DNA of 64,000 nt from Amphiura filiformis (Eukaryota). Position 1 is the stretch's first letter. Each line of letters opens with the position of its first letter. This document shows positions 11,726 through 39,176 of the stretch, in pieces. A model generated the notes under the pieces. That model saw nothing but the letters and a program-made list of their open reading frames with translations, did no database searches and had not been told where the DNA came from. Made by a program: the position numbers and the translations under genes. The stretch spans positions 58,074,946-58,138,945 of the forward strand of contig NC_092646.1 in NCBI RefSeq assembly GCF_039555335.1, in the 5' to 3' direction.

Positions 11726-11912
11726 CTGTTCCAAATACAACAATATTGAAGACCCAATCATCAGGCAAGTGATGCAAGGCTAACAAAGCAATCTTCTTGG
11801 CTTCTCTTAAACTCTCCCCTCTCATTGAATTGGATAGGTCCAACATGAAAATGACCTCTGACCTCCCTTCAGTGTTTGCTTCAAATTCTGGGTAGAAGGT
11901 TAACATGCATGC
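11726..11912 (-). CDS. PARP4: PARP4-like exon: start of the vWA domain (ACMLTFYPEFEANTEGRSEVIFMLDLSNSMRGESLREAKKIALLALHHLPDDWVFNIVVFGTG)
   Basis: Acceptor ttctcttctttacag|GCATGC and donor ACAG|gtaggg. The MIDAS motif D-L-S-N-S-M is present. The reading frame is continuous with the preceding exon. Confidence 0.85.
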
Positions 11913-12132
11913 CTGTAAAGAAGAGAAATGTTTATAAATGAAGTCCAACAATTTTGAACACAATTATTATCCATCACCTTTAATAGGAGGATCTACTTGT
12001 GTACGAGGCTAGCCTTATTATGAAAAAGAAATTGTTGCTTGCTAACATCACCAAACTTTACATGAAATCTAGCGGCTGACAGCAACTGATGAGCTCCCCA
12101 CTGGCTCTGCAAGTTATCTTTGCTTTGCTTAC

Positions 12133-12355
12133 CTGACTATCTTTCTTAGATGGGTGGCGCTCTACCCACATACGAGGTACATGAATCTCTGCCAATCCAA
12201 TCTGAAGCTGAAAGCCATCGTCCAACCTGGTGCAACCATCAGCCAATGCTACTGTAGCTTTGCTTGCTGTGCGCTTGATTCTGATTGGATGCGTGGGTGA
12301 CTCCAGAGTTCGAATGTCATAGGGCATCTCTATAGCAACCTCCACTGACAGATTG
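12133..12355 (-). CDS. PARP4: PARP4-like exon: C-terminal half of the VIT domain (..NLSVEVAIEMPYDIRTLESPTHPIRIKR...GFQLQIGLAEIHVPRMWVERHPSKKDSQ)
   Basis: Acceptor ttttcctacag and donor CAG|gtaagc. It begins in phase 2, consistent with the preceding exon ending in GG. Confidence 0.8.
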
Positions 12356-12494
12356 CTGTAGGAAAAGGAGAAGTCAAAAAAGAAAAAAATGAGTCTTTCA
12401 TCGTAGTAGACCGGGAGTTTGGGATGTGGAAGAGCATCTGGTGTTGCCTCTGGTAGGTGTTTCTAATGGCTTAGCTGGGTTTGAGGAATGCCGA

Positions 12495-12610
12495 TCAGCC
12501 CATCTTGACTGTCCTCAGGTCGTTCTGAGTAACCTCTGACATGGCTGCATCATTCTTCCAAGGAGCTGCAGTCCCAGGTAGACCAAACACTAGATTACAT
12601 CTTTTAAGGT
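12495..12610 (-). pseudogene. Intronic degenerate duplicate of the 3' half of the VIT exon at 13738-13943 (..LVFGLPGTAAPWKNDAAMSEVTQNDLRTVKMG*)
   Basis: About 32 residues are a paralogous copy of IVFGLPGSVAPWKKDTALSEVTQTDLKTVKIDKEMKG. It ends in a stop codon and has no GT donor. Confidence 0.55.
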
Positions 12611-12814
12611 CAGTTACCCCAAGACAGAGAAACAAAATAAAACACATCCAAAGTGTTATATTCCTTGCCACACTACTCAGCCATTGAAAACGGTCGAGAT
12701 TTATTTTTGTATATTCATCAAAAACATGCATACACAATTCACAATTTAATTAATATGAATAGCAAAGGCTAAAGGCTTCAATTCAGCAAAAACAATCATA
12801 AAATTATTCGGCAT

Positions 12815-13140
12815 TTATGCAAAAGCAAAAGTCTGGATGCGAGGTACTCCACGATATCGGAAAGCGAGATACTTTAAGCAAAAGCTGAAAAGCTGGATGT
12901 GAAATACCCCTTATATCTGAAAGCGAGATACTTTAAGCAAAAGCTGAAAAGCTGGATGTGAAATACCCCTATATCTGAAAGCGAGATACTTTAAGCAAAA
13001 ATGAAAAGCTGGAATGTGACTTACTCCAAGATATCGAAAAGCAAGGTACTTTAAGCAAAAGCTGAAAAGCTGGATGTGAGTTACACCATATAGCTGAAAG
13101 AGAGATACTTTGGAAGCAAATGAGAAAATTATAGCTGAAG
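12815..13140. repeat. Tandem repeat with a unit of about 60 bp, about 5 copies
   Basis: gcaaaagctgaaaagctggatgtgaaatacccc..tatctgaaagcgagatactttaa is repeated head to tail. Confidence 0.85.
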
Positions 13141-13737
13141 CCTTTAGCATATTTTAATTATAATATTTAATATTTTTTGCTGTTGACTGGAGCCCGCGAG
13201 AGATTCCCGAGCTTCCTTGCGGAAAAGTTCCTTAAGAAAATTTCAAAATCAAAAGAATTATTACATTTTTCTTTGACATTGTACATATAAAGCCATTATT
13301 TTATATAATTAATATCAAATTGCACTCCCACCCACAACCCACCTCTAATCTGGACCACTTTGCAACTCGTGCGAACCCTGCAAAGTGAGAAAGAGCAAAA
13401 ACCAGAATTTTTGGGGATGGTGGGTGGGTAAATAAAAATTATTTACGACCGTCCTCAATGATGGCTGATTGTGTTGTGATTTGGCTATGGCTCCCAACGC
13501 AACCGGATAAACAACCAAGCCTGCCCTGATTGGCCAAACCCGACAAGAACACAATGGATGCTTTATGCAAATGAAACATGTGATGACCCGCGGTCATTTA
13601 ACATGTCCTTTCACGAACGCCCCTGGATGCAGGCATGGAAGCACCCATTTCTCTGCGGGGGCAAATTTTGATTCTTCATGATTGATCACATTCAGAATCT
13701 TTATTATTTATCATATGTACATTACATCTAAGCTTAC

Positions 13738-13943
13738 CCTTTCATTTCTTTGTCTATCTTGACTGTCTTCAGGTCTGTTTGAGTAACCTCTGATAGCGCT
13801 GTATCTTTCTTCCAAGGAGCAACACTGCCTGGTAGACCAAATACAATTGTATCTCCATCTACAGATAACTCTGCCATGTAAACTATCTTGATCACTACAG
13901 TTGTCATTGGGGGAAGGTTTCCTACACTCACTGTGAACACATC
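13738..13943 (-). CDS. PARP4: PARP4-like exon: central VIT domain (DVFTVSVGNLPPMTTVVIKIVYMAELSVDGDTIVFGLPGSVAPWKKDTALSEVTQTDLKTVKIDKEMK)
   Basis: Acceptor ttgcag|GATGTG and donor GG|gtaagc. The phases match both neighbouring exons. Confidence 0.85.
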
Positions 13944-13949
13944 CTGCAA

Positions 13950-14013
13950 GGAGATACAATACAGTTTTCTTTAGGGGAAGGTTACTTACACTCACTGTGT
14001 ACACATCCTGCAT
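13950..14013. repeat. Local duplicate of about 65 bp of the acceptor and first codons of the exon at 13738-13943
   Basis: ggaaggttacttacactcactgtgtacacatcctgcatag closely matches ggaaggtttcctacactcactgtgaacacatcctgcaag. Confidence 0.6.
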
Positions 14014-15027
14014 AGAGAAACAATTTCTGTGACTACCTCTGCGCTACATCCTTCACTGCACAAGATCCCCATTAGGCCCCCTTAATTAAATTTTGTGTCT
14101 CAAAGCTTGTCAGAAATTGGAAACCTAATGCGGAACACAATTTGTTTCTTCATCTATTTTTTATGTGTCAGTATAGGCTTTGGTACAAGCATTATGTCTG
14201 TTCCAAATATTTGAATAGTAGTCAAATAAAGTCACTGCTACAAAATAACCACATGAAAATACAGAATGATAATCTAAAACTTGAAATCAAATAGGAATTT
14301 TGGATTTTTATATTCACCTTTTGTTAAAAAAAGACAAAAAAATATGAATTTCTTGATTTTCAAAGAAGATTTTACTAACACGGTGCAGCAGCTTTGAGAC
14401 AGAGGTTTTTATTATCAGTGGTCTTAGACCTATAATAGGGTGGGATAAATACTAGGAAATTTACACAGCCCAAATAAAGGAATCCCTTCTCCTCAGGGGA
14501 TAAACAAGTAATCAAAAACAAAAGTAATCAAATGTCTGTGGCTATTATAGTGTATACGCTGATTTTCGCTGTGGTTTTATTTTCACAAATTTCGCAGATT
14601 AATATGTGCCCGCTAAAATAACAACCCGCGAGTATGTTAAAATGAAGAAATTTCTTATGTATATTATTATATAAGTTGCCAACAACCGTGAATTTAACAC
14701 CTCGTGAAATTGTCAGTGATACTTGAAACCGCAAAAATATCTGTAGCCGAAAATATTGGCCTATACACAGTACAGTAGTTGATGTACACACCCCACCCAC
14801 ACACTATTCAATCTGTTAGACAATTTAAAATGGAAACCTTTCATTTTACATGACAAGAGGCACACTTCACTTAATGATATCATATCGGTCCCTTGCCGGT
14901 GGTGCACGGAAACGAACAAAAACAATTCTGCATCTCATCTGAAGCACAATAGCCATCGTGTGCAGGACGTGTGAAATGCATCTCTCAAATGCTTCTAGTA
15001 TGCAATTTTGCACTCATATGACAAAGA

Positions 15028-15400
15028 TTGTGTCAAGTGCTTTCCAAAGTAAACCAAAATATACCCCCATGGGCTATACCAATTAAAATCCACACTACCC
15101 CTACAAGATTTTGGAATATCTTACACAGGGGGTTGGAAATATCTTCCATAGGGGGAGTACAAATTTCAAATGTTATTAGTGGCATTAACCTCTGTTTGAA
15201 CCTCACCTTCCCTCTGTGCAAGATTCATGTTCAATCTTTCTCGGAGGGTATATGAAATTCAAATGGAGCTGCTTAATGTATTTATTCCATTTGAAAGTCA
15301 TACTCCCCCTGTGGGAGATACATGTATTTCCAAAATCTTCCACAGGGGTAATGTGGATTTTAAATGGACGAGCCCAATTTGTGCTCCATACGTATATCAA
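15028..15400. repeat. Cluster of truncated MITE-A fragments in both orientations
   Basis: Several ccatacacccc..gggagtgtagatttcaaatgg motifs. The six-frame track translates these as the recurring (H)TP..ED and FKWN peptides. Confidence 0.6.
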
Positions 15401-15456
15401 GATGGCGGTTGAGTCTGTGTTACCTGGTTTTAATTGTGTGGTATTCCCCTACTTAC

Positions 15457-15675
15457 TGGTGTTTCTTCATCCATAAGATAAGCTCCATGTCCCTTGCTGA
15501 TTGCTTCTTTGTATTCCTTGTGGGCTGTTTCTTTGTCTTTCACTTCCCCTATGATATGCTTGTCATTAATGAAGGCTTCAAATCCACACACTGCTGCCAT
15601 ATCATCCAGGGGGAACACATACTTAGCTTCTATCGGGTCATTGTTTTCATTGGTGTACACTTGGAAGACTACAAC
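15457..15675 (-). CDS. PARP4: PARP4-like exon: start of the VIT domain (VVVFQVYTNENNDPIEAKYVFPLDDMAAVCGFEAFINDKHIIGEVKDKETAHKEYKEAISKGHGAYLMDEETP)
   Basis: Acceptor cgttag|GTTGTAG and donor CCA|gtaagt. The VIT signature YVFPLDD..AAV.GFEAFIN is present. Confidence 0.9.
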
Positions 15676-15780
15676 CTAACGATGAAACAAACAATAATTA
15701 ATGAAAGGAAGAAAGGGATAAAATTAAAGGAAGAAGAGAATGTGAAAGAGCAGGAAGAAGATGTGAAATGAGATGAAAGG

Positions 15781-15963
15781 ACTAATGGGCTATTCCAGTT
15801 GAAATCCATACACCCCCTGTGGGAGACATCATAAACTCCCACACAGGGGGTGTAGATTTCAAATGGAATCCCCCATTCAGGTAACCCTATTAAAATTCAC
15901 ACTCCCCAACTGGAAGATTAAGGTCATAGTCTTCCATAGGGGGTGTATGGATTTCAACTGAAA
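15781..15963. mobile_element. MITE family A, full palindromic copy of about 185 bp
   Basis: TIR gggctattccagttgaaatccatacaccccc and its inverted counterpart gggggtgtatggatttcaactgaaatatccca. Confidence 0.8.
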
Positions 15964-17129
15964 TATCCCATAAGCAGTGTTGCCAAAACTTTTCAGCGTC
16001 AAGGCGCGGCGCATTGACTCGCCAGGCCGCGGTAAAGGAATCTCAAGTAGCCCAATTTTTTAAGCTTCCAAAAAAGCGCCCAATACCGGATATTTGGGCA
16101 GATTTACCCGAAGTTAGAACGCAAAACACCCAATTGGGTGGACAAGCACTTGACTTTTAAACTTCCGGTAATTACTAGGAAGTTACTGACCGATCAATAA
16201 CTTGTCACAAAACCCATTGTAATTGCAATTTGGAGCTTTAGAGACTCAAAACCTTTATAAATCGGCTAAACTGAAAGGAAAATACATCAAATTAGTGCCG
16301 CGGCCTGACACTGGCAAAAGTAGCCCAATTTTAGGCAAGTAGCAGCATGCTTTTTTGAGTAGCGGCAAGTGATCGCCAAGTAGCCCAATTGTGCGCCTAA
16401 GGACAGTTTTTGCAGTTTTGGGACACTTTGCCCTCTGACCTATTGGGAAAATTCAGAAAAATTGGTTTTTGTGTTTACAAAATATAATCTAAAATGTTTT
16501 ACAAGAATAAAATCAAACCCAAAAAATATTATTATTAAATAAATTAATTATTTAAATATTTTTAATGATATCATTATGAAAATAATAAATTAATTAATAC
16601 TAATTACAGCAATTTCTCGATATGTCAGAGGTCAAAGTGTCCCAAAACTGCTCTCAAAAACTGGAAGTTATAATGGCGATTGGGCTTATTGCTGGGTCAG
16701 TCAAGGAATGAATATCATTCAGTAATATTAAAATTAGAGATAATACTTTCATGTTAATGCTCTGTATGCCATAGACTTCAACGTAAAAATTCCCAGTTTT
16801 GAGATATTTTCTCAAAATATCAAGAGCTATCTTAAGAACCATAGATTTCAAAGTAAAAATTCCCAGGCATGACAATATACAATTCTTAAATTTTGAATTT
16901 TTAAATTTAAACAATTTTTGGAGTCGACACTCGCCATGAGAGAATTAAATAGAATTTATCAGCTTAATTTTGACACATAACATTTCAAAATTGATCAACG
17001 ATTTGATAACTGAAAATAAGTCATAAATTCTTTTTCTTTTTGTTCCTTATTTTGTCATGTATTATTTTTTCCATATCTTGAAAATCAGTGGGCTGCAAAA
17101 AAATTAAAGTACACCCATTTGATGTGATT

Positions 17130-17755
17130 GGTTACATACACTAAGCCAAAAAAGAAACTTATAATTTTTCACAAGGTCATATCTTAAAATCCTCTCCATA
17201 AAAATGAACAAAAATTGCACACAGGATTACTTCAATACTCTACTCTAAACACTGGTCAGTAACCAAACAGTTGTCCAACTGACACAACAGCAAAATACAC
17301 TGACATGCAACACCTTCCTGGACCACATTCACAGCGCAACAGATTTCTTTGGCTGGGTTCCAACAATTTTTAAGCCTGTACATGAACAAAAATTACACAC
17401 AGGATTACTTCAATACTCTATTCTAAACACATGTCAGTAACCAAGCAGTTGTCCAACTGTCACAACAGTAAAATACACTGACACGGAACAGCTTCCAGGA
17501 TCACATTCACAGGCGAATAATTGGAACCCAGCCAAAGAAATCTGTTGCGCTGTGAATGTGGTCCAGGAAGGTGTTCGTGTCAGTGCATTTTACTGTTGTG
17601 TCAGTTGGACAACTGCATAGTTAGTGACATGTGTTTAGAGTAGAGTATTGAGGCAATCCTGTGTGTAATTTTGGTTAATTTTGATAGACAGGATTTTAAG
17701 ATATGACCTTGTGAAAAATTATAAGTTTCTTTTTTGGCTTAGTGTGTTAATGAAT
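17130..17755. repeat. Foldback structure built from units of about 190 bp (two direct copies, then one inverted copy) with inverted flanks
   Basis: 17190-17345 is similar to 17375-17520. 17520-17680 is the reverse complement. The flanks ctaagccaaaaaagaaacttataatttttcacaaggtcatatcttaaaatc (17140) and gattttaagatatgaccttgtgaaaaattataagtttcttttttggcttag (17695) are inverted. The same unit recurs at 57150-57360. Confidence 0.7.
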
Positions 17756-17756
17756 G

Positions 17757-17942
17757 GCCTACTCCATTTGAAATCTATACACCCCTTTTGAAGACATACC
17801 TTAATCTTCAACACAGGGAGTCTGAATTTCCATTGGGCTTACGCGAATGGGTGACTCCATTTGAAATCTATCCTCCCTGTGTGGGAGATTACTGTCACGT
17901 CTTCCACAGAGGGTGTATGGATTTCAACTTGAATAGCCCAAT
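17757..17942. mobile_element. MITE family A copy; abuts the 135-bp tandem array
   Basis: ggcctactccatttgaaatctatacaccc ... gggtgtatggatttcaacttgaatagccca. Confidence 0.7.
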
Positions 17943-17949
17943 AACTCAC

Positions 17950-18485
17950 CTCTGCAGCCAAGTCCAGTAACTTAGCCCTGACATGGACAGCTTTCAGTGG
18001 TACTGGTTGGTCACTATTAGACAATAGACCAGCTTGGACTTTGGACAGTGGATCAGTAATGGACTGCACATCATTGATACTTACCTCTGCAGCCAAGTCC
18101 AGTAATTTAGCCCTGACATGGACAGCTTTCAGTGGTACTGGTTGGTCACTATTAGACAATAGACCAGCTTGGACTTTGGACAGTGGGTCAGTAATGGACT
18201 GCACATCATTGATACTTACCTCTGCAGCCAAGTCCAGTAACTTAGCCCTGACATGGACAGCTTTCAGTGGTACTGGTTGGTCACTATTAGACAATAGACC
18301 AGCTTGGACTTTGGACAGTGGATCAGTAATGGACTGCACATCATTGATACTTACCTCTGCAGCCAAGTCCAGTAATTTAGCCCTGACATGGACAGCTTTC
18401 AGTGGCACTGGTTGATCACTATTAGACAATAGACCAGCTTGGACTTTGGACAGTGGGTCAGTAATGGACTGCACATCATTCAGAT
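17950..18485 (-). repeat. PARP4: In-frame tandem array: 135-bp unit x about 4.7, made of the PARP4-like linker exon plus its GTAAGT donor; A and B variants alternate
   Basis: Period is 135 bp exactly (ctttcagtgg at 17991, 18126, 18261). The minus-strand ORF is open across all copies and reads (QSITDPLSKVQAGLLSNSDQPVPLKAVHVRAKLLDLAAEVSINDV)n. Each copy contains GCAGAG|GTAAGT; the last copy has GCAGAG|GTGAGT. Confidence 0.85.
18355..18485 (-). CDS. PARP4: PARP4-like linker exon (minimal, single-copy form): D-LNDVQSITDPLSKVQAGLLSNSDQPVPLKAVHVRAKLLDLAAE, ending at the first GTAAGT donor
   Basis: Acceptor aaatttcag|AT. Phase 1 pairs with the exon at 22558-22729, which ends in phase 1. The donor is in phase 0 and pairs with the acceptor at 15675. 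Donors at 18220, 18085 and 17950 are equally in-frame alternatives. Confidence 0.6.
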
Positions 18486-18540
18486 CTGAAATTTAATGTG
18501 GTTGAGATGTGTTACATTATTGTATGACTTTGACTGGAAA

Positions 18541-18640
18541 TTACACAGGGGGGTGTAGATTTCAAATGGAGTCACCTGTTCTGGTAAAATTCACACCCCC
18601 TGTGTAAGAGGGGGTAACTGGAAACTGTAGGATTTGAACT
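18541..18640. mobile_element. MITE family A internal fragment
   Basis: ggggtgtagatttcaaatggagtcacc...ttcacaccccctgtgt. Confidence 0.5.
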
Positions 18641-19397
18641 GGAACAGGCCCTTCGTAGCCTGGCGTACATGTAGGATGTGGTACCGTCGTACATGTAGGA
18701 TGTGGTACTAGTGCACGTCAAAAACCTGGGAATTTTCTAATTTTGGAGCTTTAACTCATATTTCGATCTTCATCATTTATGCCGCCGAAACGCTCAAGGT
18801 CTCTTATAAGTTCATCTGATACATTACCAGAACTATCTAGGACTGATGAATTGCTCAAATTTGATCAAGTCACCATGTGATCACCACCAAATTCACCCAG
18901 CCACGTACCTAATGTGGTAGATACGCTACAACAGGCACATGCAGTTTACAAAGTGATGGTCAATTGCTGGACACGCCGCTGGTCATCTTGGTATGCACTA
19001 CGACTTGAAGCATATGACAGACATCTTGCTTAAATTAGACAACATTCTTATTCAATGGGTGCGTCTTGTAAAGAATTCACGTAATTTGATTGGTTTTCTA
19101 GTGTATAATATCTCACAATAGTTGATAGTGATATTAGTCAGGCGTGCGCCGCCCGCGCAATGCGGCATGCACGCTTGTTGCTCCTCAATGATCGTAGCGA
19201 TAATGCGTTTGCGTAATACGTGCGAGAACTAAAACGCGATTCGGCGGCTTAGATGTTCGTGATGCTTTCCTTCATTTAAAACAACGGGGATGTCCTCAGA
19301 AAAGTAACTTTATTTTTTTCTGAAAAAGGCAGTTTTTCTCTTTGCCTATCCAATATCGTGTCATAATGGATGGGCTGGGGAATATTTTTATCGTAGT

Positions 19398-20110
19398 GTG
19401 CGCCGGCATCCACTACTCAAAATATTGGCCAGCCAATCCATTATGACACGATATTGGATAGGCAAAAGACAAAATCCTATCATTTATTCCCTAAAGGTCA
19501 CAACTGGATTTATCATGATCGAGACTCAATTGGGTTCCCTCCAGGCTGCTTCATTGAAACAAGTGACTGAAGATGCAAATTATCTAAAATCAGCAGTTAA
19601 AATCTTGGAGGGAGATTTAAATCAAGTCAAGCAAAGCGTGATTCCAAATCTCAAAATGGAACTGAAAGGAAAAATAAAAGCACTTGAACAGAGTTGACTA
19701 GAAGCCAAACTTTATAGCAAGAAATCCAACTTGCTTTTCTTTGACATTCCCTCATGTTGGAGAAAACTTGCGTAGTCAACTAGAAGCCGCAATGCCATAT
19801 ACAAAAAAACATCATCTTCATGAATGTACATCGATTACCGACCAAGTCTACCATAGCTGACAAGCCCAAGCCGATTATTGCAAAATTTTTGTGCATGGTA
19901 GACAGAAACAGGGTGATAAACTTCAAACCAGAAAAATCAGGAAAGAAACTAAGCATTGCTCCACATTTACCACCGTCCATGCAGGCTGAACGTCAGAGAC
20001 TTATTGCTATCAGGAACCAACTCATCGCAGATAGAAGACCAGCCAAGATTAAGGTGACCGGTACAAAAGTGCATATTGTGGTAAATAGTGCCATCTACAC
20101 AGAATAGATT
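19398..20110 (+). pseudogene. Degenerate non-LTR retrotransposon ORF1 (L1-ORF1/Transposase_22-like) with a coiled-coil region and an RNA-binding C-terminus, broken by stop codons
   Basis: ORF1-type motifs: a coiled-coil (LKSAVKILEGDLNQVKQSV..LKGKIKALEQ), then ..SKKSNLLFFDIPS.., then HRLPTK...KPKPIIAKFL...NFKPE...LSIAPHLPPSMQAERQRLIAIRNQL. It lies inside a PARP4-like intron. Confidence 0.55.
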
Positions 20111-20257
20111 AGTAGGTTCAAATTTGTTGCCAAGCCCATCGTATTTCAATACTGACCTCGCCAGTAATACCATCAGAAGACAAGGTCCTCTTTTATAGAG
20201 CCAAATCCCAAAACATATCTGTGATTTAACATCAATCAGTTCTTTCAAAACCCAGTA

Positions 20258-20655
20258 TAATAATAATAATAAATTTTGGATTTATATTAAAAGCGCCTTT
20301 CTCCAGATCTTAGAGGACTTAAAGCGCTGTAATTTCGCTGCAATGGTGAATCATCACAATCAGATCGCATCAACTAGGCCAGTTGCTGCGCACACCTATC
20401 CGCATTTAGATTGTAACATCCACCAATTATCTGTGCAGCTCCCCAAATTCCATTGGGTGAAGGAAGTTTTTGATAACCAAACAAGTAATCACCAATTTTT
20501 GCGATACAGGAGGAAACCGGAGATCCCGGAGAAAACCTGCGATAGCGAGCATGGAATCGGGATAAACCAAGTGCACATGAGTCCTTTGGCTGCGCCGGGG
20601 CTTGAACCCGGGACCTCAGTGGTGCAAGGCGAGGGAACTACCGCTGCGCCAACTC
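20258..20655 (-). mobile_element. tRNA-derived SINE with a Deu-domain-like core and an (ATT)n tail
   Basis: On the minus strand it starts ggagttggcgcagcggtagtt...ggtcccgggttcaagccccggc, which is a tRNA head. It continues ttctccgggatctccggtttcctcc and ends gcgctttaagtcctctaagatctggagaaaggcgctttt + (att)5. Confidence 0.65.
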
Positions 20656-21289
20656 CAAATAAAGCTCAATTAATTTCACTCTATAGATAAAATTCCCCCA
20701 TGCACCTTTTATTGCATACCATGTAATTCATCATCATTTTACCCAATTACTTGATTCATGTCTTGATTACAGAATGCATTTGAATTGTATTTTGAAATCC
20801 TGCCTGTTGCCAACATGAATGCCATTCACTTGTCTCGTTTTGTCTTGTCTTCACATCAAAGTCTTGTCTTTCTCTGTGTCCTTGTCTTTGCACTTATACT
20901 ATATTTAATATTATTATTAAGGGGTGGGGTATGAACGTTTGGACAGTATTTATTGTGGGACATTCATAACCTCATTAATATACGCTGTGAAGCCTGTGAC
21001 TCACAATGACTTGGACGGCGCAACAATGACTTCTCTTGCTGCAGCAGTATAAGTTTCAGCGTTATGGCAGCGCACACGCCTACGCGATGCCGTCGCGCTT
21101 CTGTGATTGGTAGCTCTTGTTGTCGGCGCGAATGTTATATTCGCCTGGTTGATTTTTTTGTAGGGTATGTTACAACAATGATTAAAACTGGTTATATTTA
21201 ACAGCGTTACGTTTTATGGCATAAAATAACATAAAATGCCATTTTGATTTGTTCAAAGTATTAGATACGACGGTAATGAATGACAATAA

Positions 21290-22557: not shown

Positions 22558-22729
22558 CAACATAGTCTCCTGATATCATCTCAATGTCCGAGTCATCTTG
22601 ATCCAAAATGGCTGCCGTCTCCATGGAAACATGGCCATTGAGGTTTTTAGGTTTGTCTTCTGGCAATGTGAATTCTACAAGATAGCGTATGCGCTGTTGA
22701 GTTGTATCATATATTGCAAATTCATCATC
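22558..22729 (-). CDS. PARP4: PARP4-like exon: C-terminal end of the PARP catalytic domain plus linker (DDEFAIYDTTQQRIRYLVEFTLPEDKPKNLNGHVSMETAAILDQDDSDIEMISGDYV)
   Basis: Acceptor ttttag|GATGAT and donor GTTG|gtaagac. The motif E-F-x-I/V-Y-D...Y-L-V-E/K-F is typical of the last beta-strands of PARP catalytic domains. Confidence 0.8.
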
Positions 22730-22889: not shown

Positions 22890-23083
22890 TTGACTTTTCT
22901 AGTTGAAATCCATACACCCCCTATGGAAGACATGACTTCAATCGCCCACACAGGGGGTATATATTTCAAATGGAGTTGCCCATTCAGGTAACCCAATTTG
23001 AAATTCACACAACCTGTCTGGACCATCAAAGCTCATGTCGTCCATATGGGGTATATGGATTTCAACTGGAATAGCCCATTGCA
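22890..23083. mobile_element. MITE family A full copy
   Basis: agttgaaatccatacaccccctatggaagacatgac ... ggggtatatggatttcaactggaatagccca. Confidence 0.8.
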
Positions 23084-23713: not shown

Positions 23714-23897
23714 CTTAAAATCTGAGGCATACAATTCTGTTCCTTTGACTCCATGAACACTATGATATCCTTGTGGGGCTTCTGACAGTTCCTTGTGGTA
23801 CTTATTGACATCTTGGCATTTTCCAAGTGCTACTTCATTGATGGTCATCAGTCTTGTACCAGTTGTCTGACTTGCTGCAGAATATTTGGCACTTGTG
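23714..23897 (-). CDS. PARP4: PARP4-like exon: PARP catalytic domain (TSAKYSAASQTTGTRLMTINEVALGKCQDVNKYHKELSEAPQGYHSVHGVKGTELYASDFK)
   Basis: Acceptor cttcacag|C and donor AAG|gtaagg. The E-V-A-L-G motif and the ..G-Y-x-S-V-x-G.. motif of PARP catalytic domains are present. Confidence 0.85.
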
Positions 23898-24198: not shown

Positions 24199-24365
24199 TT
24201 AGGGCTGTGCAATAATTATGAGCCCCCAGGGGTAAAATTTCCAAACAGCATGCCAAAAATTGTTCTAGAGACCCCAATTGAATTCTTATATATGACAATT
24301 ACTGAGCTTTTGATACTAATTGGGCTATTCCAGTTGAAACCCATACACCCCATATGGAAGACCTG
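24199..24365. mobile_element. Adjacent solo termini of MITE family B (24199-24260) and MITE family A (24318-24362)
   Basis: gggctgtgcaataattatgagccccc...aaaatttccaaac and gggctattccagttgaaacccatacacccc. Confidence 0.5.
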
Positions 24366-24799: not shown

Positions 24800-24898
24800 C
24801 TAGAACTGTTAGCAAAGTATATAGCACTCCCTAGCATACCAGCGTCAGTTCTCTCTCCTCCAAAATCATCTACCACAATCTTAGGTAGAAGTAAACCC
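24800..24898 (-). CDS. PARP4: PARP4-like exon: PARP catalytic domain (GLLLPKIVVDDFGGERTDAGMLGSAIYFANSS)
   Basis: Acceptor ctgtag|G and donor AG|gtaagg. The G-x-x-x-Y-F-A motif of the NAD-binding fold is present. The phases (2 in, 2 out) complete R and S codons shared with the neighbouring exons. Confidence 0.8.
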
Positions 24899-26216
24899 CT
24901 ACAGTAATGTTAAATAAAATGATAAAACATTTATTAAATGTGGGTGGTCTAATTGTGTTGTCATGATATTTTCTATCACCAAAACATTTGTATTCCATGT
25001 TTTGAGTTCAATTGTTCCTGTGCTTCTATATGCTCAATATTTGGTATTAGCAGAAAGCTGGGCCTTCAATTAACACTTTTCCCTTCCCCAGTCCCCCATC
25101 ATTCAATGTTGGGACACTTTGGAGACACACTGAACACATTTGGATGTCTCAACATTGCATGGGGTGTGGGGAGATAAAATTTCCCCTAAAGACGCTTAAA
25201 TGTTTCAAGACTTTTTTCGAGGATTGTAGGTAACCTGTCACACCTATTATCTTACTATAAATAGGCTAATGTTGTATGTGTGTGTGTAGGGGTGTGTGTT
25301 TGTATGTATGTGGTTTATGTAAAAGGCTCCGTCAGTTTCGATCCAAATGTCGCCAAATTCATACGGGAGATCGAGGAATATACGGGAAATTGCCTGGACT
25401 TTATTTGGTTGAAATCGGTCAAGAATTGGCTGCAAAAACAGTGAAAATATGGGTAAAAAGCGGGTTTTTGTTATGAAAATCAGTTGCCAGCCTGCGCGTC
25501 ACTGCAGCTGGCAGGCAGCGTCGGCGCTCGGCGTAACGCGCACTATGCCAATCTTGGCGAAGCGGCGCAGAGCCACGCGACTTGCGATCCAGAGACCAGT
25601 GGACATGATAATACAGAAAGAAGGAAAAATAAATAAAAATTTAAGGGCAAAAAGGTACATGGACGGGTCACGGGATTATGATAAAGATGAACACGTCCGC
25701 AAAAAAAAAGAAGCTATAATAATGATAACAGAAAAAAAAAAAAAACATGGAAACGGGAAATCACAAGCAGCAAATAAAAAAATGAAGCTAAAAGGGAAAT
25801 GTAACAAATAACAGATGGGAAAAAAATGGGAACGGGTTTAAATAAATAAATAACATGGAATTAACGTAAAATCACAAGCTAAGCAGCAAATTTTTTTTTT
25901 TTAATGGGAACAAAATAGACCCATGTAGAAGAAACTGAAAAGAAAGGAAAAAGGAAATGTAAGAAGAGACAGATTTATATAAATAAAATGTATCTTTTCG
26001 ATGATTCTACCTGTTCAGTAATTCTTCCTGTTATAGTGAACGCTCCCATTTACTCATCTAGCGGAGACCCGCGCGAAGCGCGGGTATCCCGCTAGTCTAG
26101 TTAACCAAGTTCTTGTGTAGATCAAAATTAATCATAGATGCACATTTACATTACATTATAATGTTTGTTAACTTTTGAAGAATACATTTAAAAATACTAA
26201 ATATATTACAACCTAC

Positions 26217-26354
26217 CTGGATAAAATTCCCACAAAATTGGTTGGTCTTGAAGCATGGAACAGCATCTTCTTGTTGCCAAGGTGACTGGCAAAGCTGGTC
26301 TCTTCCACAGCTCTACTCACTGCATATATATGGCTAATTTCTATGTTGTTATTT
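26217..26354 (-). CDS. PARP4: PARP4-like exon: PARP catalytic domain with the H-G-S-type motif (NNNIEISHIYAVSRAVEETSFASHLGNKKMLFHASRPTNFVGILS)
   Basis: Acceptor ttactttcag|A and donor AG|gtaggt. The F-H-A-S-R-x-T-N-x-x-G-I-L motif corresponds to the PARP W-H-G-S-R..N..G-I-L motif. Confidence 0.8.
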
Positions 26355-26690
26355 CTGAAAGTAAATCATACATAACCAAGGATAAAGAGCACAGTTTAAT
26401 AGTCTCTTCCAAAGTCCTACACTGCAAAGATTTACCTAATTGCGCATATCATGGGCTCCCTTGACATAACTGGAATTTTAGGCACAAACTGAAAGTGTCC
26501 TCCCATCAAAAATCCCACCAGCAAATAAGGACACAGACCCTTAATTCTTGTTGGGATTTTCAGAGGAAGGAGCTCTCTATTTGTGCAATTTACCCTAAGG
26601 CAAAGGAGCTCTCATGTGCGCCATTAGGCAAATCATTACGGTATATATGTCTAGGACATATTGTAATTATAATAACGAACTAACACCTAC

Positions 26691-26851
26691 CCAGTCTGAG
26701 ATGACAGCACCACATTCTTGATATCATTGAATTCATGGTGATTCTCTGGCAAGCTTTCTATATGGCAACGTAGGGCACGATACTTGGCATCTAAACTGCT
26801 GCGTGTAGACCAATTGGTAGCTTCACTTACACCAACAATGTCTTTAACAAG
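26691..26851 (-). CDS. PARP4: PARP4-like exon: end of the PARP regulatory domain and start of the catalytic domain (LVKDIVGVSEATNWSTRSSLDAKYRALRCHIESLPENHHEFNDIKNVVLSSQT)
   Basis: Acceptor ctttgcag|C and donor GG|gtaggtg. The K-Y-x-x-L-x-C-x-I-E..L motif is present. Confidence 0.75.
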
Positions 26852-27349
26852 CTGCAAAGAGTGTAATTACATAATGAGAATTACTACTGAGAGAGATAAA
26901 AACTTTTCAAATACTAAACATTAAAAAGTGGCAAAACCAAAGTCTCAGAACAGAACCAAATTATGAATGTTTATCCAATATTTTCAGTGTCCTTCAGTGT
27001 ATATAATTAGTTATATACTGTACCTCATATTTAGATTCCTGTCATCTGATTGGGTAAAAGTGCAGTCATTGAATTAGCTATGCCCTCCTTTTTAAGAATT
27101 ACGTAAAGGTTATATATTTTATAAAGGTTATTCCCAAGACATAGTCATTTTCACATCATTGGTGTGCGTCCCGATCAAACTCTACGCACACAATGGCGTG
27201 TTCACATTACGCATGCGGCGCCGACATGCTGCCTGCCATGTTGTGGTGACACAATCGGTTCATAACAAACACTTTCTTTGTAAATTTTACCATAGCCTAT
27301 GAGCAATAAAATAGGCCTTTTAACCAATCAGATGACAAAAATCTATATT

Positions 27350-27530
27350 AATGAGGTATATAAAACAAATATTGACTGCTTTATTCGGGTCATGGTTAAA
27401 ATTATAGGCCTGCGGTGATCTCAAAACCATGCTATGACCCGAGGCACAGGTCATAGCATGGTTTTGAGATCACCGCAGGCCTATAATTTTAACCATGACC
27501 CGAATATAAAGCAGTCAATATTTGCAAACT
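27350..27530. repeat. Palindromic MITE-like element of about 180 bp
   Basis: caaatattgactgctttattcgggtcatggttaaaattataggcctgcggtgatctcaaaaccatgctatgacc is mirrored about a centre at 27440. Confidence 0.7.
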
Positions 27531-28047
27531 AGCCACCTGTCCACCCATCATTTTGGATGGGAAGTCTCTCATCTCGTATAGAAAGGCAAATGCCTTTCAC
27601 AAGGCTGACTTACATATAGCTGTTGTAATAGTTTATTGAACTTGAATTTTTATATAAGATCATGCTCTATGTGTTCAAATGTCTGCATGGATATGGACCA
27701 AATTATCTCATTGAATGAATTTCATTATACAACCAAACTCGTCTCGGCTTGCGTTCTGCAACAGACACTACACGTCTCTCTGTACCAAATTTCAACCCCA
27801 AAGGCCTGCAATCAGCTTTCGACAAGAGTTTTTTCTCTCACCGCACCTGCACTCTGGAACTCACTTCCATCTGAACTCCGTACTGCTGCTTCTCTGCCAA
27901 GTTTCAAGAAAGGTCTCAAAACCTTCCTGTTCCCACAATAATCTGGTGGTTTTGTTTCAGTTTGCTGTTTTATTTTGCCTTTCAAATATTTTTGTGTTCC
28001 ATCTTGGCGCCGTGGTCTTTATGAAATGGCGCCCTATAAATGCCTTG

Positions 28048-28159
28048 TAATGTAATGTAATGTAATGTAATGTAATGTAATGTAATGTAATGTAATGTAA
28101 TGTAATGTAATGTAATGTAATGTAATGTAATGTAATGTAATGTAATGTAATGTAATGTA
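28048..28159. repeat. (TAATG)n pentanucleotide microsatellite, about 22 units
   Basis: Perfect gtaat repeats; the translation is HYITL... Confidence 0.95.
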
Positions 28160-28230
28160 ACTTGAAGTAGATCAAAACTGTGATCTCTTATGGTAGTAAG
28201 CTGTACAATGGTGATAAATCTTCAACATAC

Positions 28231-28398
28231 CTGACATAGATTCTGTTTCTTGGCGATCATGCTACGTGTACTGATATCTTGCTGTGATTTCTGCGGTAGT
28301 AAGCTGTAGTATTCCTGGCTAAGTTCTTTGAGTTGAGTTGCGTTAGATTGGTCTAGTGATCGCTTGATTTGAAGTAGAACAGACTCTGCTTTCTCCAC
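28231..28398 (-). CDS. PARP4: PARP4-like exon: PARP regulatory (alpha-helical) domain (VEKAESVLLQIKRSLDQSNATQLKELSQEYYSLLPQKSQQDISTRSMIAKKQNLCQ)
   Basis: Acceptor tgctcatcag|G and donor CAG|gtatgt. Phase 0 at both ends. It contains the F/Y-Y-x-L-I/L-P motif of PARP regulatory domains. Confidence 0.7.
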
Positions 28399-31147
28399 CT
28401 GATGAGCATATGAAACAAATCAAGTGGTAAATTTCTGGACCAGGGTTCCAACTGGTTAACCTGAGGTGTCGGGAAGCCGTCAACATCTGGCGCCATTTCT
28501 CGTGAGGACGGGGGATGGGGTTACTCGCATAAATCTTTGGTAGGTAAATGCCACCCAGAATACAAAAATGTACGGACTGAAGTTTGTGGACATAAAATGG
28601 GGTCTCAGGAACTATAAATTGGGCTTTGTTCAGTGCCCTTTTGACAAATACTTTGCAGCAATATGTGCTTGGAGCTCAAATTTGAAGCTAAAGTTAATGT
28701 ATTGGAGGAAAATTCAGAGATGCAGTTTCACTAAAAAAAACCACAAAATGGTGAGAAAAACCTGAAAAACCTTTCCAGTATAAAAGCAAGTTATGAGTCT
28801 AACTAAATTTGGTATACGGCATAAAATCAATATCGGCATTATGCATTACCATAATAGTGGTTTATTTATTCGACCAAATTCATCCAATATTAACAACACA
28901 GCAGTGTTTTTAAAATTTAAAAAAAAAATAGAAAAGTTGTACTTACAGCGTTCAATGGTCATTAAATGTAAGCATTGTGTGGGGCATGTAAACCACACCA
29001 TATTTTTGCACTGAATTCAATTTTTTATTTAATCATCTTTATTAACAAAAGAAGAAGAACATATAACCCCAAGATCAACTGAGATCCATACTGATCTCAG
29101 GCAAGGTAAACACAATTACAAACAGCAAATAAACACATAAACAATGAGGAAATACATCATGGCGGTGAGAAAAAAGTTATATGACTTCTTGGACATTCCA
29201 CTTTGGCTCATGTCTTGAGTTGAAGATTGAATACGATGACATGAGGACAGACTTGGTAATTTGGTCTTTCAATACCTTGAATTTTTTTGGGGTAATAAGT
29301 TGTTTTGACAAACGAGTCAGCAAATATGATTTGCTTCAAAAATGAAAATGGGCACTTGTCGCCTTCAAACCTTCTAATATTATGCCTTCAAACCTAAACT
29401 GAGACCACAATACTCTGTCAATTGTAACAATTGTGTCAAAATTACCTTAGTTAATTTTTTATCCCTGGTGCTCTCAAATACAAATATAAGACAATTAATA
29501 GTTACAGTTAGGCGACGAAAAAAACCCTGTTCTACGGGAGGGCGCAGTCCCCGGCGCACAGTGTCAACACCCTGTATTATAAATATTTTTTTCCATACAG
29601 CTCAATACTCAATTAAAATCAATATTCTATTATTGACACAGATAAAGAAAGTTTACATATGCATTGTGTTATAAGACGTGCACCTGGAACTTAACTAAAT
29701 GGGCTAAACGCGTTCCTTTATACCTAGAAGTAGAACTGTCATTCTCAAAATTAAATATATCTTAATTTTTCATTGGATTTCAAATTTTTTACATTAAAAA
29801 TGCAGTAAAAGATATCCACAGCAAGCTGCAAGGCCCTGCTAATTAGTGTACTGCTTTTCGAGTGAGTGTACTGGAAACAAAACCCTGGTTTTACCTGAAA
29901 ACAAATATTTTTCTTGTAATAGAAACATCATATGGGGTACTAGAGCATGCACAAATCGTAATAATGTGTAGAATATAGAAACGCTGTGGTATCTCATATG
30001 ATAGTCATGGTATGCTTAGCCTGAGTCGCTCGGCCTATCTCGAACAAAATCGCGATACGTAGCTGTTAAAAAACGAGAGGATTCGCTGTACTATCACAGC
30101 AATTTTTAACACGAAGATATAGGGAAGATGACGATGTGGGGCGGACCTTTCAAGTAGAGTCGATCAGTTGGGCGGTTTGTTTTTTCTCTAAATGACCCTA
30201 AAATTTCACCAAAATCTGAAAAATCAGAAGATATTTTGCAAACATATTTTCTAAAATGTTCAGCAAAATTAATAAACATTGGCCCAAAAATGGCTAATTT
30301 TACATAATTTTAGAAAATTCAAAAAAAAATTCTCCAAAGCGCAAATTCTGGGTCGGTCTTTTTTTTCTCGTCGTCTTATAGGCATATTTTTTTTACTTTT
30401 TGTCTTTACATCATCAACATCTTTCCCACCAGACTACTTTGTAGTCCGATTGTTTTTCTTTTTTATTTATTATTATTATTTTTGGCATTTTTCTTCTTAG
30501 ATACTCAGTGCACTTATCAAGAGCAAGTCAGACAACTGGTACAATGTCAACCATTTCTTTTTTTCAGATTATCTCAAAAACTACTACTGAGAGAGGGCAC
30601 TGTATATGTATACCGTTATTTTTCATACTATTTTACATCAAGAGAGGGCTCTCTTTATGTTACTGTAAGATTTGTGTCCCATCAACAACCTGAGAGTGGT
30701 CATTGGATTGGGAGCATACTCAAAGTCAACAGTAACCATAGACATACCACCTAGACCTGTAACTGCCCATCCCTAACCATGGCAGTAGGTGAAGCCACGT
30801 ATCCAAGGTGATTTTGGTCGGGTGGTCGGACGCGGAGAAATAAGCGTTCATGTCTAAAACGAAAAACGCGATCGTTTGCGTGATTGCTGCGCCGTTATCG
30901 CCAGCGTGAAATGCAACATGTTCTGTAGACGCGAACATGTCTGCTTGTTTGCGTCAGGGTTGCGTCCTTGTCAGGCGTTGCTAAGCAGTGTTGACTTCAC
31001 TACGCAAACCAAAGTTATAGGTCTAGGTTCTTGTTTGTCTGGGACAGTAACAGTAAAGGGAGCCCTCTCTTGTGGAGAAATTAATAGTGTTACTATACGT
31101 TAATTGGTGGTGCTATAGCAGTGTATAGGTGATTTTGCAAAGCAGTC

Positions 31148-31448
31148 AGGGGCTGTGCAATAATTATGAGCCCTGGGGAGGGTAAAATTGGGGGAAGAAA
31201 TTTTGGCAAGCCAAAGGGGGGCAAGCAAATTTTGGCACCAATTTGGGGCGCCTTTTAAATAAAGCGCTCTAAAAGGCTTAGGAAAACAACGGAAACGCTT
31301 AAATATGCAAATTTGGCATGTTCAAGGGGGGGCAAAGATTTTTTGGCGGGACGAGAGGGGGGGGGGCAAGCGATTTTTGGCGGGCCGAGAGGGGGTGGGG
31401 GAAAGCGATTTTTGGCGAGCTGTTTGGAAATGTTATTGCACAGCCCCT
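31148..31448. mobile_element. MITE family B full copy of about 300 bp
   Basis: TIR ggggctgtgcaataattat and its inverted counterpart ttattgcacagcccc. Internal G-rich boxes (ggcgggacgagaggggggggggcaagcgatttttggcg) are shared with 40600-41040. Confidence 0.7.
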
Positions 31449-31643
31449 CAGTGGTATCCGAGAGTGATATAGATCTAGATTGAATGAATTGAAAATAACA
31501 ATGTACGTGAAGCAGTGATTAATACTTGACTGTAGTATTGCTAAGATCACACAAAATAATGCCGACATCACACAAAATAAAGTGGAAAATAAAAAAAATA
31601 AAAAAACAAATATCGACTATGGCATAGTCTACTTTCACACAAA

Positions 31644-31781
31644 TATGCCTGACCTTATCAATTGATATAGTTTCTACAGGAACCATCAAAATATCAGATA
31701 ACTGTCCCAATGCTTCCTGCCATACATGGTCTACCAGACTTGCTACTTCTTCTGTTAATGGCTCCTGAGACATGCCTCTCT
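31644..31781 (-). CDS. PARP4: PARP4-like exon: start of the PARP regulatory domain (VMLERGMSQEPLTEEVASLVDHVWQEALGQLSDILMVPVETISIDK)
   Basis: Acceptor tcatgttacag|G and donor AAG|gtcagg, which is a weak donor. Phase 0. It is contiguous in sense with the exon at 28231-28398. Confidence 0.6.
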
Positions 31782-31859
31782 CTAGCATCACCTGTAACAT
31801 GAAAGAGCAGAAAGTTTGAGGTATGAGAGAGAGATGTACCACTTACACTTATACTTAGG

Positions 31860-32320
31860 TTGATGGGCAATAGATATGTTATTTAGCCTTTATGATCCCA
31901 TATCCAAATTCATGCTGCCAATTGGAGTCTATCTTACTCTTGAATTCATTCACTGACTTTGCCATCACAACATTTCCTGGGAGACTGTTCCAGTGGTTAA
32001 TAACTGTTATGGAGAAAAACTTGGTCCTACAGTTCAGCCCTTTCTTCAGTGCTGGGGTAAACAGCTTGTCACTGTGCCCTCTCAGTTGGTTCTTGTCTCT
32101 TCTGAACATAGTCTGCTCTTGAATGCCTTTCAGACCGTTTAGGATTTTGAAGGTCTCAATCAGGTCACCTCTCATTCGTGTCCACTCTAGACTGTATAAC
32201 TTCAGCTTTTTCAGCTTTTGAGAGTACTCTTTTGATCTTAGACTTGGAATCAGCTTTGTTGCCCAGCGATGTACTTTCTCAATCATGTTTACATCCTTCC
32301 TCTTGATTATTACCATCTTT
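31860..32320 (-). mobile_element. 5'-truncated non-LTR retrotransposon (CR1/L2-like); 3' part of ORF2
   Basis: The minus-strand ORF ..MIEKVHRWATKLIPSLRSKEYSQKLKKLKLYSLEWTRMRGDLIETFKILNG.. matches the C-terminal region conserved in CR1/L2-type LINEs. Confidence 0.6.
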
Positions 32321-32399
32321 ACATGAAGTTATATGAAGTTGTGATTTGTTGAAATGCATCTTGTGAAAGGACTGAAGATATATGGATTACCCTGCAGTA

Positions 32400-32770
32400 T
32401 ATTGGTGATCCAGTCCATCTGAATTATAACAGCTTCTTTGTCTTGGTCATGTGTCATGGTGACTTGGTCTTACCTTTCTGCATCTTGGTATACTGCTCTT
32501 CACCTTGGTTATTTTCCATGCCAACTTTATCTTACCTTTCTGTATCTTGGTGATCCAATCCATCTGGGTCAGAACACCTTCTTTATCTTGGTCATGTTCC
32601 ATGGTGAGTTTGTCTTACCCTTCTGCATTTTGGGTGGTCCAAAACATCTGGATAACTGCTCTTCACCTTGGTTATTTTCCTTGCAAACTTTGTCTTACCT
32701 TTCTGTATCTTGGTGTTCCTATCCATCTGGACAACATCTTCTTTGTCTTGGTCATGTTCCAAGGTGAGGA
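32400..32770. repeat. Tandem repeat with a unit of about 169 bp, about 2.2 copies
   Basis: ctcttcaccttggttattttcc recurs at 32488 and 32657. The three overlapping plus-strand ORFs are artefacts of the repeat. Confidence 0.8.
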
Positions 32771-32870
32771 AGTTCTCTGGTTGTATAGAAAGCTGTAGAC
32801 TTGCAGAGCTTCTTCGCTGGTCTCACTGTACCGACAATCACGGACACCACCTGTGTCACTCTGTAAATTA
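32709..32870 (-). CDS. PARP4: Tentative PARP4-like exon upstream of the regulatory domain (SDTGGVRDCRYSETSEEALQVYSFLYNQRTSSPWNMTKTKKMLSRWIGTPRYRK)
   Basis: Good acceptor ttctaatttacag|A and good donor AAG|gtaaga. Phase 0 in and out, as required between 33832-33981 and 31644-31781. Similarity to PARP4 is weak, and the exon overlaps a tandem repeat. Confidence 0.3.
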
Positions 32871-33094
32871 GAAGACATCAGAAATTGTAGTATTATAAAC
32901 GTGGAAATTTTGGGGAACATTAGTTTTCACAATTTTTGCCATATTTTGATCATATATGGCGAGTAGCAGGCACAGTGCGCAGCTCAACATTCAAATGTTA
33001 AAATGTAGAGCCATAGAAACCTGGACTGCATACAATATTGAGCATTGACTATAGAGTGATTTGACCATTCACCTAGCATCACTAGCTAAGGACT

Positions 33095-33350
33095 TAGGGA
33101 GCACGGTGGCCGAGTGGAACGGGTTCCGACTCATAATCGGAAGGTTGCAGCTTCGAGCCCCAGCGATGCCATCATGTTGTGCCCTTGAGTAAGGCACTTT
33201 ATCTCGATTACTCCTCTCCACCCAGGTGTATAAATGGGTACCAACATTCTTAAATGCTTGGAAGGTAACAGACTCACTGTGGAGGAGGTGTAGCGAATCC
33301 CCCTAGCAACATTACATGGAGGAGTCTGGCCCAATCGTCAATGAAAGAGA
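33095..33350 (+). mobile_element. tRNA-derived SINE with a tRNA-Met-like head
   Basis: Head: ggtggccgagtgg..tccga-ctCATaa-tcgga..ttcgagcccc. The anticodon arm is perfect with anticodon CAT. The body (cccaggtgtataaatgggtacc) is shared with the SINEs at 37910 and 38938. Confidence 0.65.
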
Positions 33351-33643
33351 GATGGGCACTCTGATCACTGTTTATACAGAATCGTCTTCTTTACCTTGAC
33401 ATTTTTTTACCTAGCATCAGGCTTGCGAGTGATTAACCACATATATATTGTTACTAGCATTACAAAGGTTTGCGCATGTAGCACTTAGCATACAGTATCA
33501 GCACGAGGCATGCTACTAACACTAAACAAGCACATACTTCAAACTGAAGTTACTGGGCAAATGGAAAAAAAATCCAGAGGGGCCCTTCATGAGTGACATG
33601 CAAACATGGCAGTTGGTTTTCTTTGGGTCTAATCTCTTTGCTT

Positions 33644-33820
33644 AGGGCTATTTTAGTTGAAATCCATACACCCCCGTATGGAAGACATGACCTTAATCTC
33701 TTACACAGGGGTGTAGATTTTAAATGGAGTCACTCATTCAGGTAACCCCTCCTGTGTGGAAGATTAAGGTCATATTTTAATAGGGGGTGTATGGATTTCA
33801 ACTGGAATAGTCCATTCTAA
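33644..33820. mobile_element. MITE family A full copy
   Basis: gggctattttagttgaaatccatacaccccc ... gggggtgtatggatttcaactggaatagtcca. Confidence 0.8.
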
Positions 33821-33831
33821 TCTATTCTCAC

Positions 33832-33981
33832 CTTCATATCCGATAATTTCCCATGATGCACCATCACTCTGAATGGATGCGTGACAACATCCCTGATGTT
33901 AGCGCCTCCTGGTGACAGCTGTGGAATAACATGCAACTCCAGAAGATAAAAGATACACTCCTTGGTTTTGGGGTCAGTTTT
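33832..33981 (-). CDS. PARP4: Probable PARP4-like exon upstream of the regulatory domain (KTDPKTKECIFYLLELHVIPQLSPGGANIRDVVTHPFRVMVHHGKLSDMK)
   Basis: Acceptor ttcatacag|A and donor AAG|gtgaga. Phase 0 at both ends. The C-x-F-L/Y-L..H motif resembles the PARP4 region that precedes the regulatory domain. Confidence 0.45.
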
Positions 33982-39170: not shown

Positions 39171-39176
39171 AAAATG

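Follow-up and report, generated by a model that had tools for sequence, protein, structure and literature searches.

We analysed a 64,000-nucleotide stretch of the genome of Amphiura filiformis (NCBI RefSeq assembly GCF_039555335.1, contig NC_092646.1, forward-strand positions 58,074,946 to 58,138,945), hereafter the window, and found that stop-free segments of its minus strand, from about 40.6 kb down to 11.7 kb, carry PARP, VIT and BRCT peptides. Judged from its sequence, the gene formed by these segments is very probably the orthologue of animal PARP4, the poly(ADP-ribose) polymerase of the vault particle (vault PARP; PARP clade 5); the window holds its 5' part and the rest would lie beyond the low-coordinate end. 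Within the window the gene spans at least 40560 to 11726 on the minus strand (28.8 kb, 18 exons). It is a known, conserved and ordinary gene that had been correctly identified, and its sole oddity is the presence of tandem copies of several exon ends in the introns.

The gene was rebuilt independently by tblastn searches with PARP4 homologues, followed by explicit checks of splice sites and phases. Seven PARP4 homologues gave strictly collinear minus-strand matches in the window, from 40545 down to 11724. Each junction was fixed by reading the sequence, and exons had to be bounded by AG and GT, compatible in phase and without a stop; junctions with internal AG sites or GC donors, as obtained by automatic scoring, were rejected in favour of canonical signals and the exon borders of Lottia gigantea PARP4. 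The resulting 18-exon model (Table 1) comprises 2833 nt with an open translation of 944 residues, all introns are GT-AG and the phases are compatible, as at the donors of exon B (ACAG/GTGAGTTT, phase 1; the slash marks a splice border here and below), exon F (ACTGG/GTAGGT, phase 2) and exon K (GAG/GTAAGT, phase 0). An earlier note on this DNA had described fourteen GT-AG exons with compatible phases, which we recovered as exons C to O, free of stops. Its two ends were exact, 33981 being the acceptor of exon C and 11726 the last base before the donor of exon O, and the PARP, VIT and vWA motifs that it had quoted were all located, in exons G, H, I, J (which also contains the YLVEF motif), L, M and O. 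As to the extent of the gene, the fourteen-exon part stood, but the gene was found to reach further upstream, where four more exons between 40560 and 35455 cover BRCT and the beginning of the WGR-like region.

A rough concatenation of the stop-free segments retrieved 364 database relatives, and among the best 120 of these all that carried a name were PARP4 or PARP4-like. Closest were predicted PARP4 genes of invertebrates, namely the stony corals Desmophyllum pertusum and Oculina patagonica (58-59% identity), Lottia gigantea (55%) and Acropora digitifera; the 120 also comprised other molluscs, vertebrates (44-48%), rotifers and Trichoplax. The same concatenation gave Pfam matches to VIT, PARP, VIT_2 and PARP_reg. 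In a phmmer search against all PDB sequences the best match was full-length human PARP4 (E 4e-189), aligned as one collinear stretch between residues 7-944 of the model and residues 4-919 of the human protein, in which the catalytic His, Tyr and Glu are matched by FHASR, AIYFA and DDEFAIYD. Matches to PARP1 (best 8e-23) and ITIH1 (1.5e-8) were weaker. Additionally, all twelve exons D to O corresponded one-to-one with exons of Lottia PARP4. By this comparison of the exon chain the orthology is with PARP4 and not with other PARPs.

As PARP1-3 and the ITIH heavy chains each match part of the model, we also considered two adjacent genes, one PARP1/2/3-like and one ITIH-like with VIT and vWA domains, that only seem to be continuous. 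However, the one human PARP4 alignment passes through the junction of ART and VIT; exons J, K and L, which are phase-compatible and one-to-one with the Lottia exons, connect the two domains in frame on one polypeptide; and PARP4 scores 160 orders of magnitude better than PARP1 or ITIH, which makes two genes extremely improbable.

The encoded domain order is BRCT, a WGR-like beta sheet, the helical PARP regulatory domain, ART with an intact His-Tyr-Glu, VIT and the start of vWA, the last being represented in the window by its first strand-helix-strand with the metal-binding DxSxS motif. Pfam matches to BRCT (residues 7-87, 3e-9, 37.4 bits against a cut-off of 21.3; BRCT_2 29.1 against 27.3), PARP_reg (residues 302-386, 7e-8, 33.0 bits against 26.8), PARP (residues 410-585, 1.5e-32, 113 bits against 26.7) and VIT (residues 651-761, 6e-37, 126.7 bits) all exceeded the curated cut-offs. 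The VIT and PARP values, like the human PARP4 match, are far above what chance would produce. VWA_3 (17.9 bits against 27) and VWA_2 remained below theirs because the domain is cut short, with only about 44 of the 155 profile positions (1-44) present. The PARP4 identity proposed in the earlier note was thus borne out by the human PARP4 match and by the top relatives, and its reading of the exons as one continuous protein across the junctions by the compatible phases, the open frame and the single human alignment. Of the domains that it had listed, PARP_reg, PARP and VIT were found in the order given and above their Pfam cut-offs, whereas vWA was present only as its first exon (the first 44 or so residues) and fell below the cut-off.

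Structure prediction gave a similar picture. A confident AlphaFold model of residues 130-590 (predicted local distance difference test, pLDDT, 86.7; predicted template modelling score, pTM, 0.81) had as its best fold match the human PARP4 catalytic domain, consisting of the helical domain (HD) and ART (8sx1/8sx2; template modelling score, TM, 0.90; 42% identity). The WGR-like region was predicted as a beta sheet plus helix with a pLDDT of about 90. PARP1 and PARP2 WGR-CAT chains aligned with the whole 461-residue model over some 500 columns, compared to some 350 for CAT-only chains, and the N-terminal beta-sheet domain is therefore covered too. The BRCT region of the model aligned with human PARP4 BRCT crystal chains. 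These domain findings fit the published order of human PARP4, BRCT-WGR-HD-ART-VIT-vWA-MINT (PMC12212138, PMC12280208).

Table 1. Exons of the PARP4 gene model, exon-derived tandem arrays and MITE-like (miniature inverted-repeat transposable element-like) copies in the window.
Feature	Position	Strand	Description
Exon A	40414-40560	-	residues 1-49, first half of BRCT
Exon B	38656-38857	-	residues 50-117, second half of BRCT
Exon B2	37593-37659	-	residues 117-139, Lys/Ser-rich linker after BRCT
Exon B'	35455-35533	-	residues 139-165, start of WGR-like region (RVYPLGSDQAPAYPDECYELAKCSLLQ)
Exon C	33832-33981	-	residues 166-215, WGR-like beta sheet; first exon in the earlier note
Exon C'	32699-32860	-	residues 216-269, end of WGR-like region
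Exon D	31654-31791	-	residues 270-315, start of helical (PARP regulatory) domain
Exon E	28231-28398	-	residues 316-371, helical domain
Exon F	26691-26851	-	residues 372-425, end of helical domain and start of ART
Exon G	26217-26354	-	residues 425-471, ART, catalytic His in FHASRPTNFVGIL (26260-26222)
Exon H	24800-24898	-	residues 471-504, ART, catalytic Tyr in GSAIYFA (24831-24811)
Exon I	23714-23897	-	residues 504-565, ART (EVALGKC)
Exon J	22558-22729	-	residues 566-623, ART, catalytic Glu in DDEFAIYD (22729-22706), then acidic linker
Exon K, first copy	18355-18485	-	residues 623-666, linker and first VIT strand
Exon L	15457-15675	-	residues 667-739, VIT core (YVFPLDDMAAVCGFEAFIN)
Exon M	13738-13943	-	residues 740-808, VIT (FTVSVGNLPP)
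Exon N	12133-12355	-	residues 808-882, between VIT and vWA
Exon O	11726-11912	-	residues 883-945, first vWA exon, MIDAS DLSNSM (11840-11823)
Exon B array	38380-38761	-	117 bp, 3.3 copies, 92% identity
Exon B' array	35477-36105	-	139 bp, 4.5 copies, 98% identity
Exon K array	17944-18480	-	135 bp (45 codons), 4.0 copies, 97% identity, head to tail
MITE-like copy	604-648		
MITE-like copy	11465-11507		
MITE-like copy	15286-15378		
MITE-like copy	15783-15971		
MITE-like copy	17752-17940		
MITE-like copy	18543-18605		
MITE-like copy	22894-23080		
MITE-like copy	24319-24365		
MITE-like copy	33645-33817		
MITE-like copy	34597-34676		
MITE-like copy	35115-35167		
MITE-like copy	36472-36667		
MITE-like copy	37781-37905		
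MITE-like copy	39173-39437		

Human PARP4, for which structures are available (PDB 9bw6, 9bw7 and 11jf, full length; 8sx1, HD-ART; 9dev, BRCT), shows the same order BRCT-WGR-helical-ART-VIT-vWA, to which the present model contributes a WGR-like region and the start of vWA. However, the identity is only about 45%, and the linkers after BRCT and between ART and VIT differ in length as well as in sequence. Lysines K23/K24 of the human BRCT domain are needed for binding of vault RNA (PMC12212138), whereas by our reading of the phmmer alignment only the first of these is kept here (K, Q). The C-terminal 800 residues of the human protein, including MINT (1562-1724), have no counterpart inside the window. 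PARP1, PARP2 and PARP3 are homologous in BRCT, the WGR-like region, the helical domain and ART (E about 1e-22), but unlike these the protein encoded here has no zinc fingers and carries VIT and at least the start of vWA after ART, and its similarity to them is far below that to PARP4. At the gene level, Lottia PARP4 is compact (about 10 kb, with introns of a few hundred bp), whereas the introns here are 0.2-4 kb long, filled with MITEs and fragments of long interspersed nuclear elements (LINEs), and hold exon-derived arrays. The PARP4 loci of Lottia and Acropora digitifera, unlike the one described here, have no tandem repeats overlapping exons.

The coding sequence is expected to extend beyond the model at both ends. 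Exon A starts at a good acceptor (TTTTATTCACAG/AAAGCA) without an in-frame ATG, and therefore at least one coding exon lies further upstream. Positions 40561-48000 were scanned for phase-0 mini-exons running from an ATG to a strong donor, which gave one candidate at 46503-46495 on the minus strand (MNK/GTAAGC, sequence ATGAACAAG/GTAAGC), possibly the first coding exon, though without supporting evidence. Exon O ends in phase 1 at the donor ACAG/GTAGGGTA, and therefore the frame must continue in an exon outside the window. For human residues 920-1724, which include the vault-binding MINT, the window has no corresponding region.

Several observations weigh against an intact PARP4 gene that runs on past the window. 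No start codon was found for exon A, and between BRCT and the helical domain Pfam WGR gave no match even at E 10. At the other end, tblastn of 88 C-terminal segments of homologues against positions 1-11800 found nothing past exon O at E up to 10. A profile hidden Markov model built from 19 vWA domains, searched against the six-frame peptides of the whole window, detected exon O (4e-11) and no other vWA exon. The intron implied after exon O is at least 11.7 kb, nearly three times the largest of the other 17 (220-4072 bp), and the DNA downstream of exon O is more AT-rich than the introns (GC 0.33 versus 0.38), whereas in Lottia the next exon after the counterpart of exon O is only 276 bp away. 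In line with these results, tblastn over the whole window at E 0.01 gave no PARP4 C-terminal exon beyond exon O, the remaining 250 or so vWA positions were absent from the whole window by both tblastn and the profile search, and no open reading frame (ORF) longer than 94 codons was present in 1-11.7 kb.

A truncated PARP4 copy ending after the first vWA exon, either as a partial duplicate, as a pseudogene or by an assembly join, would account for the lack of a downstream exon within a distance so far above the other intron lengths, for the fall to 33% GC right after exon O, for the ATG exon not being found and for a locus full of local duplications. However, every one of the 18 exons is open and has canonical splice sites, the catalytic and MIDAS residues are conserved, and decay has affected the duplicated fragments of exons nearby but not the main exons. 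Exon O closes with a good donor, beyond which read-through would supply just 'RV' ahead of a stop and leave an unfoldable vWA stub of 44 residues; no polyadenylation signal was found within 1 kb. The window also contains no Ns or gaps. We consider a truncated copy quite unlikely, and the gene most likely continues past the window across an unusually long intron.

The region 1-11725 itself would either belong to a very long intron or mark the gene's end. It has 33% GC; at 2343-3163 there is a 16/26/42-bp satellite that includes inverted blocks, and at 7746-8434 a local duplication of about 350 bp. That the gap is due to a large transposon in 1-12.5 kb was rejected, as no long terminal or inverted repeats were found there beyond the satellite and the local duplication.

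By orthology with the human enzyme, the product would be a vault-associated ADP-ribosyl transferase. It would use NAD+ to ADP-ribosylate targets, its BRCT domain would bind vault RNA or other nucleic acid, and its C-terminal MINT would dock the protein to the major vault protein (MVP) inside the vault shell, as suggested by work on human PARP4 (PMC12212138, PMC12280208). In the human protein BRCT binds vault RNA, the helical domain is natively open and not autoinhibitory, and VIT-vWA is presumed to serve as an interaction module (PMC12212138, PMC12280208), with MINT docking onto MVP repeats 3-5 inside the vault (PMC12280208). Because the C-terminal half including MINT is not in the window, we infer vault association from orthology only; MINT and the remainder of vWA would have to be encoded beyond the low-coordinate end, across the intron of at least 11.7 kb.

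With Tandem Repeats Finder, five of the six long-period arrays inside the gene were found to overlap exons. The unit of the exon B array consists of the last 107 nt of the exon and 10 nt of intron; copy 2 is not in frame and runs into a stop. As the donor is part of this unit, identical pseudo-donors come after the true one: the full units provide three occurrences of ACAG/GTGAGTTTGG, and the fourth, partial copy ends before it. In the exon B' array the unit is made up of the acceptor and the 5' part of the exon; of its copies, the four upstream ones are pseudo-exons that contain a stop in frame, and only the last one runs into the real exon. These two arrays are young (92% and 98% identity, respectively). 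The unit of the exon K array takes in nearly the whole exon and some 6-9 nt of intron. Each of the four copies has an open, in-frame sequence for one and the same 45-residue peptide and ends in a strong donor (GAG/GTAAGT in three, GAG/GTGAGT in one; donors at 18355, 18220, 18085 and 17950), and the four variable coding sites differ only by synonymous transitions at third positions.

Copies of pieces of exons C', I and M in the adjoining introns are older and partly decayed. The last 70 nt of exon C' recur, with at least 54 nt of intron, at 32608-32481 and once more at about 32462-32387, so that original and copies together occupy 32387-32768. For exon I the last 110 or so nt are repeated three times in degenerate form (72-83% identity; 23709-23591, 23505-23412 and 23370-23266), the first of these copies starting 5 nt into the intron. 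Exon M has a duplicate of its acceptor and first 54 or so nt just upstream (14024-13953), and a copy of 89 nt from its 3' part at 12590-12502. That the intronic copies have decayed by frameshifts and stops, with the exons of the model intact, is expected under purifying selection.

Same-strand duplicates found only locally were present for 5 of the 18 exons, compared to 36 of 1000 (3.6%) length-matched intron segments from the same gene (binomial p 3.5e-4, in a post hoc test on one locus). The excess may reflect a mutational bias, selection or chance in this one gene. A looser test, in which any local same-strand match was counted, gave a marginal result (p 0.038), since the control rate is raised by MITE copies; we relied on the stricter one. 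In four arrays the unit borders were 4-17 nt from the splice site.

The human F7 gene offers a parallel, with a 37-bp minisatellite in intron 7 of which the first unit spans the exon 7/intron 7 boundary; there the most upstream donor is used and the pseudo-donors are silent (PMC1557585). The exon B and exon K arrays are built in the same way, with the authentic donor in the first unit and pseudo-donors after it. Unlike in F7, however, the units are 117-135 bp long, consist almost entirely of exon sequence and occur at several exons of one gene, and the exon K array is divisible by three and remains in frame. By analogy with F7 (PMC1557585), the most upstream, authentic donor would be used, giving one copy per exon in the mRNA; a single copy is also required by the human PARP4 alignment. 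Two further readings, in which the copies would be more than random debris and which we hold to be rather doubtful, are that the exon K donors, used alternatively, may yield isoforms with one to four copies of the 45-residue segment at the entry of VIT, or that a mutational process in this genome may preferentially duplicate exon ends along with their splice-site consensus. The synonymous-only differences would favour the former, and the excess of duplicated exons (5 of 18 against 3.6%) together with the border positions the latter.

As annotation the identification adds little, as PARP4 is well studied and orthologues are routinely predicted in invertebrate genomes; two decades ago, sequence homologues had already been reported from the sea urchin genome (PMC550661). 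What the identification offers in practice is a clean model, resolved exon by exon, where an automatic annotator could err: misled by the tandem pseudo-exons and pseudo-donors of exons B, B', I, K and M, it might call wrong splices or predict a protein with a spurious 4-fold repeat. Outside mammals, the arrays at exon boundaries could in addition provide a natural test of how 5' splice sites are chosen.

The window as a whole is AT-rich (33-42% GC in 2-kb blocks). A palindromic, MITE-like element of about 190 bp, self-matching on both strands, is present in about 14 copies, nearly all of them in PARP4 introns (Table 1), and two copies begin within 10-15 nt of a donor, one following exon C and the other the last copy of exon K. 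About 70 nt downstream of the exon E donor is a perfect (TGTAA)23 microsatellite (28046-28160). Two intronic ORFs, 31882-32328 (minus strand, 149 codons) and 19820-20107 (plus strand, 95 codons), gave no Pfam match; we take them to resemble LINE tail and ORF1 fragments.

Just upstream of exon A, between it and the candidate mini-exon, lies a decayed, frameshifted retrotransposon of the type without long terminal repeats (41351-43933, minus strand), with RVT_1 and zf-RVT pieces in three different frames. Its relatives were mostly unnamed marine metagenome proteins and at most 50% identical, except for a short JGI fragment with 77% identity over 55% of the query. Neither a search with this reverse transcriptase nor the PARP4 search yielded a named match that was close, the best named ones being Branchiostoma at 41% and Lytechinus at 50% over part of the query; a 64%-identical match was a JGI metatranscriptome contig. 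Short arrays of a G-run repeat (31-34 bp, unit like GGGGGGGCAAGCGATTTTTGGCGGGACGAGAGGG) were found at 31100-31600 in an intron, at 40600-41200 just upstream of exon A and further upstream at 48300-48430.

No neighbouring gene was recognised in the long ORFs of 1-11.7 kb, nor in the ten longest ORFs of 44-64 kb, which gave one sub-threshold Pfam match (Hit1_C, 22.8 bits against 26.1). The window contained no Rfam family at gathering score and no tRNA. Repeats in the upstream flank (50401-50963, 53301-53516, 54629-58072 and 63791-64000) comprised an (ATT)26 run, 7-bp satellites that flank 51-53 kb (TCGAGTT and its complement), and several 95-130-bp tandem arrays with a common TTGACCTCAGATGACCCC core.

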